Program-made: the position numbers and the translations under genes
The notes under the pieces: model-generated
The model's input: the letters and a program-made list of their open reading frames with translations, nothing else
Told to the model about the DNA's origin: nothing
Databases searched by the model: none
Shown: positions 3,821-5,064 of the stretch, piece after piece
How positions within the stretch are numbered: position 1 is the first letter of the stretch
Layout: each line of letters begins with the position of its first letter
IMG/VR virus record: IMGVR_UViG_2740892442_000003
DNA: 6,597 nucleotides
From: a virus
Taxonomy: Duplodnaviria; Heunggongvirae; Uroviricota; Caudoviricetes
Reading direction: 5' to 3' (one strand)

Positions 3821-3861
3821 GTAAAATCCCCGTCATATGGCAATCAGTAAAGGAAATAAAT

Positions 3862-4062
3862 ATGTCATCGAAAAACCGTACCCGCAGAACCACAACCCGC
3901 AATATCCGTTTCCCCAATCACATAATTGAACAGATCAACATCGCCCTTGAGCATAAAGGGTCCGGTAACTTTTCAGCGTGGGTTATTGAAGCCTGCAGGA
4001 GAAGGCTGGCAACAGATGCAACGCATCTGCGCCCGGCCAGCATGACAAATAACGAGAAATGA
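3862..4062 (+). CDS. Small ribbon-helix-helix-like protein (YlcI/YnfO-type prophage ORF, DUF3950-like; family assignment from memory)
   Basis: 66-aa ORF from the internal ATG at 3862 with AAGGA RBS (track ORF begins further upstream at a GTG). MSSKNRTRRTTTRNIRFPNHIIEQINIALEHKGSGNFSAWVIEACRRRL has a strand-helix-helix pattern. Divergent from HNH across a 41-bp spacer. Confidence 0.65.
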   Translation: MSSKNRTRRTTTRNIRFPNHIIEQINIALEHKGSGNFSAWVIEACRRRLATDATHLRPASMTNNEK

Positions 4063-4260
4063 ACGTTCGGTTTCTTCCACCATCGCACCGGACAGGCGAC
4101 TATGAGGGGACAACGCCGCGCTCCGTTAACGCGGTAAACCCCGGTGTGTATCGTTTTTGATTATCCCCGCACACTCGCGCAGAGGAGTCTCCCTGTCGGG
4201 CTGCGGTCTCTGTTAATGCAGGAATACGGCGACAATACCGCGCATGGATAATAAGGTCGC

Positions 4261-4485
4261 TCAACACACTGGCTGTAATGCAGCGGATACCATGCGGCAT
4301 TTAGCGGCATTCATCGTACACTCCACGGTTAGCTCTTCATTCGTGGCATTCACCTGAAAGGTCCGGGAGTGTAATTGCGTACATTTACCACTGAACGAAC
4401 CTTCAACAAGAACACGACCACGCTGCAAAATACGGAACGGAATTGTTCCCTGAAAAGGTTCTACGGTTACCCGTAATTTCTTCAT
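4261..4485 (-). CDS. Hypothetical 74-aa protein translationally coupled to Rz
   Basis: ATG overlaps the Rz stop as ATGA; GGAGGA RBS 3 nt upstream. Four Cys, no signal peptide or transmembrane segment. No family recognised. Confidence 0.5.
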
Positions 4486-4976
4486 GTATCCTCCGGATAA
4501 TAAAAAGCCAGCTTAGTGCACTGAGTGCGGATATATTCCTGCGCCCCTTCCAGCTGCTTCTGCATTGTCATCAACCGTTCTCTGAGGATGAAATAATCCC
4601 GTTCAGCGGTGTCTGCCAGTCGGGGGCCGGTTGCATTATCCACGCTGGAGGTGCCGGTGGCTTCACGCACGGTACCGGGGCAGGTGGCGTTGACCCGCAG
4701 GCGCTTACGACCAGCGGCAACATCAGCGCGCAGAGTTTCATTTTCAGCTCTCGCATCGGCTAATTCCTTCGTGTATCTGGCATCAAGCGCAGCGACATCT
4801 CGCTGGCGCTGCTGCATGTCAGTAATAGTGGCATTCGCCAGTTTCAGCTCACTGACTTTTTTATCGCGCTGCGCTTTGTAGGTGATGGCGTTATCGCGGT
4901 AATGATTCAGCCCCAGACTAAGCACACCACAGGCTACCAGCAGGACAATAATCACCACACACAGAACACGGTTCAT
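4482..4976 (-). CDS. Rz: Rz i-spanin (inner-membrane spanin subunit)
   Basis: 164 aa from ATG at 4976; N-terminal transmembrane segment [20 protein letters not shown] followed by [17 protein letters not shown]...[20 protein letters not shown], closely resembling lambda Rz. The track ORF's upstream GTG extension is rejected. Confidence 0.9.
4571..4756 (-). CDS. Rz1: Rz1 o-spanin lipoprotein, embedded in the +1 frame of Rz
   Basis: 61-aa ORF wholly inside Rz; lipobox LVVSAC then proline-rich [26 protein letters not shown], closely resembling lambda Rz1. Confidence 0.85.
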
Positions 4977-4977
4977 A

Positions 4978-5064
4978 TCACCACCAACGGATTGCCCAGA
5001 CCAGAACAGCAATGGCCACAATACGAATGGCAAATGCCATTGCCCGAATAAGTTCAGCACTCAT
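4978..5064 (-). CDS. Small hydrophobic peptide D (28 aa, single predicted transmembrane helix)
   Basis: [28 protein letters not shown]. Its TGA stop lies 1 nt before the Rz ATG. Paralogous to the core of peptide C. Confidence 0.4.

Follow-up and report, generated by a model that had tools for sequence, protein, structure and literature searches.

ORF74, a conserved small gene downstream of Rz in lambdoid Escherichia coli prophages, is predicted to encode an accessory binding protein

Gene order at the ORF74 locus

The window, i.e., the whole 6,597-nt stretch of DNA that was analyzed, corresponds to the late region of a lambdoid prophage of E. coli and runs along the minus strand. Over a 1.2-kb query, it shares 99.8% identity with a prophage of enteropathogenic E. 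coli (EPEC) E2348/69, and several other strains match it perfectly (100%). The minus-strand gene order is a holin gene, a YdfR-like gene, a lysozyme gene (6152-5619), the Rz gene with Rz1 embedded within it, and ORF74. Rz (4482-4976) encodes an i-spanin of 164 amino acids and was assigned from its translation, its match to Pfam Phage_lysis (E = 4e-51), and the RefSeq coordinates of a "lysis protein"; Rz1 (4571-4756) encodes the o-spanin lipoprotein (Pfam Rz1, E = 1.7e-21; PHROG 3198). ORF74 (4261-4485, minus strand) was recognized from the list of open reading frames and the sequence, and an identical CDS is annotated in E2348/69. Its next annotated neighbor, a YlcI/YnfO (DUF3950) gene, lies on the plus strand (3862-4062; Pfam DUF3950, E = 3e-19; RefSeq) and is followed on the minus strand by an HNH endonuclease gene (3820-3455) and the small and large terminase genes.

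ORF74 starts with an ATG at 4485-4483 and stops with a TGA at 4263-4261. The start codon shares the four nucleotides ATGA (4482-4485) with the Rz stop codon TGA (4484-4482), an overlap specific to this lineage, and a Shine-Dalgarno sequence, GGAGGA (4489-4494), lies 3 nt upstream of the ATG. The minus-strand sequence across the junction reads CCGGAGGATACATGAAG; both the overlap and the ribosome-binding site, which an earlier note on this DNA had described without naming the strand, are present in it. The product is already annotated throughout as a hypothetical protein (RefSeq WP_000736383.1), and literature searches by accession and keyword returned no description of it.

Sequence conservation and purifying selection identify ORF74 as a coding gene

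ORF74 is a genuine conserved gene under purifying selection. The 74-codon frame was intact in all 80 IMG/VR loci retrieved and was called as a CDS in every RefSeq genome sampled. Its DNA is present in 1,244 of 5,426 complete E. coli genomes (~23%), at up to six places per genome, with carriers that include O157:H7, ST131, O111:H8, EPEC E2348/69, and Stx1- and Stx2-converting phages. Nei-Gojobori dN/dS values ranged from 0.14 to 0.52 across all informative allele pairs. Homologues retain the 74-aa frame at 61-97% identity, and all close relatives have GGAG(G/A)AT upstream of the ATG, with the core GGAG placed 5 nt before it. A protein search yielded 49 clusters, the full-length members of which are mostly 74 aa long, originate from E. 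coli and Salmonella, and reach identities as low as 53-64%; an exhaustive profile search extended the family to proteins of 71-81 aa that stand alone and share 26-40% identity. The distant relatives share the strand pattern and a conserved SGK motif, and each has its own ATG and Shine-Dalgarno sequence. The proposal of the earlier note that this is a genuinely expressed gene is thus upheld as regards the gene itself, given the conserved frame, the conserved Shine-Dalgarno sequence, and dN/dS below 1. Separately, the ST131 allele (L022:1501-1716) has an in-frame 9-nt deletion that removes the residues SAA near the C-terminus and otherwise equals the window at the sites compared.

We also considered whether ORF74 is non-functional, either a chance reading frame or the decaying remnant of a larger gene, for example one like the 280-aa member of PHROG 2571, the family to which ORF74 belongs (see below). 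The protein covers only positions 100-172 of the 291-column PHROG 2571 profile, longer proteins containing the domain do exist (P0064, 280 aa; P0065, 225 aa; P0052, 181 aa; P0061, 169 aa), and an ancestral partner gene has gone from the window. However, most members, the most distant included, are stand-alone proteins of 71-81 aa with their own start and ribosome-binding site; dN/dS is about 0.5 or less throughout and indels are in frame; all 80 copies are intact; and a confidently predicted compact fold spans all 74 residues. Nor is ORF74 an out-of-frame piece of another gene, a possibility that the earlier note had raised, since its frame is conserved in relatives. A chance or remnant origin is therefore largely refuted, and we give it almost no credence. 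The related idea of a fragment of a longer protein, suggested by the profile coordinates, was likewise dropped, with the four long proteins being exceptions and 71-81 aa the norm. In one of these, P0065 of locus L020, the ORF74 domain forms the C-terminal part, which possibly reflects a fusion with an upstream gene.

The overlap with Rz arose by loss of the Rz stop codon

Alignment of relatives separated the Rz/ORF74 junctions into two classes. In class A, Rz ends with ATT AA(C/G) TAG, followed by a 21-nt spacer that contains GGAG and then by the ATG of ORF74; this class includes loci L002, L004, L021, and L024, with PPyecE_EH1910, an O157:H7 prophage, and Salmonella among the sources. In class B, the TAG is replaced by CAG (O111:H8, Stx2_EH1846) or CTG (the window, E2348/69, ST131), and Rz gains nine C-terminal residues, LAFYYPEDT, before reaching the TGA that overlaps the ORF74 start; this class comprises the window together with L001, L022, L023, and L026. 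Among the 80 IMG/VR loci, 49 junctions were of class B and 28 of class A. The Rz stop codon is hence a polymorphic site (TAG/CAG/CTG; window 4482-4511, minus strand, compared with L002, L004, L021, L023, L024, and L026), and the LAFYYPEDT tail constitutes a periplasmic extension of Rz.

Judged from these alignments, the Rz stop of this lineage evidently passed from TAG through CAG to CTG and thereby created the overlap, making the ATGA arrangement a by-product of stop-codon loss. The translational coupling to Rz proposed in the earlier note hence stands in part: the overlap is real, but it is not an ancestral design, as class A Rz genes stop 21 nt upstream and elsewhere the spanin-region gene and the ORF74 homologue are 108 nt (mEp237), 174 nt (L025), or 443 nt (L006/7) apart. 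On its opposite strand, the 443-nt insert of the last two loci (4558-5000 in both L006 and L007) has a promoter-like site as well as three or four hairpins resembling strong terminators, which suggests an antisense small gene or sRNA at that junction.

ORF74 encodes a small beta-sandwich protein of the PHROG 2571 family

The predicted product has 74 residues, a mass of 8.3 kDa, and a pI of 9.5. In agreement with the earlier note, it has neither a membrane segment nor a signal-like N-terminus (maximum Kyte-Doolittle 19-residue mean, 0.76). The note had also drawn attention to four cysteines. That count is correct (residues 35, 56, 63, and 74), but they do not form a motif: within the close subfamily, conservation is limited to C35 (invariant) and C56 (at least 90%), and C63 and C74 sit in a rewritten C-terminus specific to this E. 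coli clade. Distant members have between zero and three cysteines and pI values from 4.95 to 9.5. ORF74 contains no CxxC and thus lacks the two conserved CxxC-like pairs of a Cys4 zinc ribbon; it also has no metal-binding or catalytic motif, no conserved Cys/His cluster, and no conserved charge.

Residues 1-73 match the PHROG 2571 profile (E = 2.7e-28), a family of unknown function that is also matched by 18 of 18 diverse short relatives. The profile searches advised in the earlier note therefore placed ORF74 in a family, but transferred no function to it. Scans of ORF74 and its distant relatives against Pfam, NCBIfam, and PADLOC gave nothing significant, and PADLOC 2.0 had no match for ORF74, four relatives, or the product of the PHROG 4280 partner gene described below. 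Several marginal matches were set aside: a PADLOC match of P0070 (E = 0.035) and the results of a PDB-sequence HMM search with the family profile (best E = 0.044, a retinol-binding protein; the rest alpha-crystallin) were treated as noise, and the exhaustive search brought up repeat proteins (P0058, cystatin repeats; P0084, TQ domains) that we considered spurious matches. Scans of species-representative genomes yielded no confirmed relative beyond Escherichia and Salmonella.

AlphaFold2, run on the family alignment, produced a confident model covering the whole chain (pLDDT 90.4; pTM 0.76). The predicted fold is a small beta-sandwich of six strands with one short helix, for which Foldseek found no significant match in the PDB or BFVD. 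The structure prediction recommended in the earlier note was thus informative as to fold, with no specific structural match. Known beta-sandwich and jelly-roll modules (CBM6/35/36, the PA-IIL lectin, the hemocyanin C-terminal domain, and lambda J domains) are 6-17% identical to ORF74; the resemblance is one of fold class only, with no conserved ligand-binding residues identifiable. We also weighed whether ORF74 might be a J-like domain of the tail tip that became independent and now either contributes to tail assembly or serves as a receptor-binding decoy. The lambda J FNIII-A domain (PF24801) was rejected as a relative: it did not match ORF74, hhalign assigned the pair a probability of 0.2%, BLASTP also spoke against it, and distant family members scored ~15 bits against PF24801, below the Pfam gathering threshold of 27 bits. 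We regard a tail-tip origin as very improbable.

ORF74 occupies a variable cargo slot downstream of the spanin genes

The Rz-containing 1.2-kb query matched 4,556 genomes, only 1,244 of which contain ORF74. Base composition also sets the gene apart, with a GC content of 47.1% compared to 54.1% for Rz and 54.0% for the window. A synteny survey of the region after Rz, as advised in the earlier note, revealed that its content varies. ORF74 is one alternative occupant of a variable cargo slot with conserved borders, lying between Rz and a conserved element described below. Elsewhere, the same slot holds bor (lambda, VT2phi_272, and 933W-type phages), Rha (Lys8385Vzw), two unrelated ORFs (Ss-VASD and S137), or a 124-aa ORF (4A7). 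The lambda sequence bears out the statement of the earlier note that bor lies directly after Rz on the opposite strand. Its finding of no Bor-like lipoprotein at the present locus also holds: apart from the plus-strand DUF3950 gene, the ORFs at 3860-4485 match neither Bor nor any other Pfam family. ORF74 itself has no Pfam match and no lipobox, and a tblastn search against the lambda right arm found nothing.

The genes around members of the family differ widely. In the window, ORF74 follows Rz/Rz1 and is accompanied by HK97-type HNH and terminase genes. Family members also follow Rz alongside lambda-type Nu1/A (Salmonella L004 and E. coli L006/7) or a DUF1441 small terminase (O157:H7, L021). 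In L012-14, the homologue is preceded by a DUF2570/LysC spanin pair and associated with Terminase_2 or Terminase_4 packaging genes; in L025, it follows an M15-peptidase lysis cassette; in L015, it comes after Ail/Lom and BamE-like morons; and in L018/19, it lies in the early region with a cI-like repressor gene, a Ser/Thr kinase gene, and ParDE. This range of unrelated contexts indicates that ORF74 is mobile and tied to no single lysis or packaging machine. In a further observation, a gene with the Acb2/Tad1-hairpin domain (PF24729) is found directly after a distant ORF74 homologue at L009:5314-5598, L010:3316-3600, and L020:863-1147, in each case just before a Nu1-type terminase gene.

These contexts bear directly on the suggestion of the earlier note that ORF74 is a lysis or packaging accessory factor. 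As a lysis accessory or regulator, it would be a fifth member of the lysis cassette, co-translated with Rz, that tunes, for example, the spanin or holin. Its family does follow the last spanin gene in most contexts, those with unrelated lysis cassettes included, and is joined to Rz by the ATGA overlap or a 21-nt spacer with no terminator between. Yet spanins act in the envelope, and the protein carries neither a signal peptide nor a lipobox or transmembrane segment; there is likewise no SAR sequence, lipoprotein signal, or match to any lysis PHROG. Lambda lacks the gene, as do about three quarters of the genomes with a closely related Rz, and some homologues lie away from lysis genes. We consider a lysis role quite unlikely; the wider suggestion of a lysis or packaging factor is disfavored by the absence of the gene from most phages with near-identical Rz, its association with unrelated modules, and its sometimes distant position from lysis genes.

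The earlier note had named a moron as another possibility, and this label fits ORF74 best. As morons do (Juhala et al., 2000; PMC3594210), the gene is present in some and absent from others of otherwise closely related phages, and its GC content of 47.1% is below that of its flanks (PMC3594210). Two features of classical morons (PMC3594210) are missing. No sigma-70-like promoter was found upstream of the gene in the window, L006, L012, L018, or L025, by a consensus scan that weak promoters could escape, and no terminator follows ORF74 in the window; at L018, a terminator follows a solo homologue.

A conserved element borders the slot

The ~200 nt immediately after ORF74 (4260 to 4062) are not confined to loci with this gene, being found in 398 phage records at 74-100% identity. 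They contain a conserved element of ~170 nt (4065-4238, minus strand), identified by conservation and covariation, that forms the right-hand border of the slot and is a candidate structured RNA in the late transcript. The element is present in lambda (NC_001416, 46,885-47,036), where it lies between bor and lambdap78, and in 933W-like Stx phages, Shigella Ss-VASD, and Salmonella S137; in every case, the cargo after Rz is on one side of it and the packaging genes are on the other. Other copies are at L004:6158-6276, L024:2676-2854, L028:6529-6704, and L032:1201-1375. Close copies differ by 1-nt indels, which argues that the element is not coding.

RNAalifold analysis of 12 diverse copies predicted 38 pairs, with 96.6% of cells paired. 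Eleven of the 38 pairs were changed on both sides, compared to 2.4 ± 1.3 in shuffled alignments (0/500) and 0-3 in slid controls, the structure having been derived from the same 12 sequences used for this count. G-U pairs make up about 9% of cells, a proportion that favors the late-transcript strand for the RNA; single-sequence folding is unremarkable (z = -1.09 sense, +0.19 antisense). The element apparently forms a multi-helix RNA, as far as covariation can indicate. A comparison with Rfam gave no match in or around the locus, the element included, and no description of the element was found in the literature searched; the sRNAs that Tree et al. (PMC4104026) described in EHEC prophages map to the pR' site rather than here. 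As an aside, a 66-aa ORF on the minus strand at 4100-4300 matches PHROG 6954, "Rz-like spanin" (E = 2.5e-14), a label also used in phage P27; because this ORF lies inside the indel-rich element, the label probably stems from spurious ORF calls.

ORF74 was probably once part of a two-gene cassette

In many lineages, a gene of PHROG 4280 lies 40-95 nt downstream of the ORF74 homologue, i.e., in L004/5, L006-8, L012-14, L015/16, L017, L025, and mEp237. Its coordinates are 5265-5471 in L004, 5182-5397 in L006, 5341-5559 in L012, 449-670 in L016, 477-746 in L017, 1766-1981 in L025, and 2806-3027 in L117 (mEp237). PHROG 4280 proteins have 68-89 residues, the motif GWVLGWAVV..PWHLVGVYAT, and an unknown function. 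A strong intrinsic terminator directly follows the gene in L004, L006, and L025, and lies ~125 nt later in L012. The ORF74 homologues in partner-carrying lineages are 28-64% identical to that of the window; as the pairing spans the deepest splits in the ORF74 family, it is probably ancestral. From this phylogenetic spread, the ancestral state was probably a cassette of two genes, PHROG 2571 and PHROG 4280, closed by an intrinsic terminator.

The clade of the window has no PHROG 4280 gene, and homology to L004 stops exactly at the ORF74 stop codon. The ORF at 4100-4300 downstream of ORF74 is neither a PHROG 4280 homologue nor the remnant of a TonB-like gene and lies inside the non-coding element. 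PHROG 4280 also occurs in Pseudomonas phages that have no detectable ORF74 relative, indicating that the two genes are separable; gp054, located upstream of the PHROG 4280 homologue in a Pseudomonas phage, was tried and rejected as an ORF74 relative.

A specific counter-defense (anti-immunity) role was considered as an alternative. On this reading, the beta-sandwich would sequester a host immune signal or inhibit a defense protein, either alone or with PHROG 4280. The protein is small and non-enzymatic, with a patchy and horizontally mobile distribution; its location is a recognized hot spot of accessory cargo, and the family directly adjoins the Acb2/Tad1-hairpin gene in the three loci noted above. 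Set against this, it has no similarity to a known anti-defense family or fold, its place in the late operon gives late expression, the Acb2-like neighbor is confined to one lineage, and its surface charge is unconserved across pI values of 4.95 to 9.5. We view a specific counter-defense function as possible but unlikely. A more elaborate proposal, which we hold to be speculative and similarly doubtful, is that PHROG 2571 and PHROG 4280 constitute an undescribed conflict module, for counter-defense or exclusion, that is capped by a terminator and carried in the Rz-to-terminase slot of enterobacterial temperate phages; solo ORF74, with its rewritten C-terminus that contains Cys, would then be a derived, partner-independent form, and the slot would be delimited by an undescribed structured RNA in ~400 lambdoid phages, among them lambda.

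Predicted function

We favor, with a probability of roughly 55%, the interpretation that ORF74 is a dispensable, late-transcribed accessory binding protein of moron type in lambdoid prophages. Between 3800 and 5100 of the window, the coding strand contains no promoter-like site or convincing terminator; with neither of its own in the window, ORF74 is assigned to the Q-antiterminated late transcript together with the lysis cassette. The gene would be transcribed as part of this Q-dependent message and translated from its own GGAG Shine-Dalgarno sequence, presumably aided by termination-reinitiation at the ATGA overlap. The product would probably work in a stoichiometric manner, as a binder of a host or phage macromolecule or of a small ligand. 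A binding role is proposed because the protein has no catalytic motif, conserved charge, or targeting signal. More tentatively, such binding might serve phage-host or phage-phage conflict, and probably not lysis, packaging, or virion structure; this reading follows from the other occupants of the slot, namely bor, the Acb2-like gene, and Rha. The lineage of the window would have kept only the first gene of the ancestral cassette.

Some observations sit uneasily with parts of this interpretation. In most of the contexts sampled, the gene comes directly after a spanin gene, which leaves some probability for a lysis-linked role; late expression is unusual for a counter-defense protein, and the Acb2-like neighbor is limited to one lineage, which weakens the conflict component; and in no context examined did the scan reveal a promoter belonging to the gene, which tells against the moron component.

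An uncharacterized small accessory ORF in a prophage will not by itself surprise a specialist. Yet ORF74 is carried by ~23% of complete E. coli genomes and has no name and no Pfam family. Moreover, lambda carries the serum-resistance gene bor in this slot and relatives carry an Acb2-like anti-CBASS gene, which suggests that what the slot holds is often relevant to host fitness or immunity. New here are the origin of the overlap, the borders of the slot, and the ancestral two-gene cassette; the last two, together with a cultured carrier, mEp237 (gp60/gp61), make the function directly testable.

Comparison with known systems

The closest named examples of the family are gp60 of coliphage mEp237 (YP_007111433.1) and the RefSeq hypothetical proteins WP_000736383.1 and WP_000735654.1 within PHROG 2571. 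Like ORF74, gp60 has the same size and usually the same place after a spanin gene. However, mEp237 and many relatives have the PHROG 4280 partner (gp61) and a terminator, both of which are lacking in the window, and the ORF74 of the window has a rewritten C-terminus and a start that overlaps Rz.

ORF74 resembles the morons (Juhala et al., 2000; Cumby et al., 2012, PMC3594210) in being present or absent among otherwise near-identical phages. Lambda bor occupies the same slot between Rz and the conserved element, as it does in VT2phi_272, but the two genes are not homologous: ORF74 is on the strand of the late operon and bor on the opposite strand, and the ORF74 product is predicted to be cytoplasmic whereas Bor is an outer-membrane lipoprotein. 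The Acb2/Tad1 sponges (PF24729) are, like ORF74, small, non-enzymatic, single-domain accessory proteins of phages; the two share no similarity in sequence or fold, and it is their genomic neighborhood that links them.
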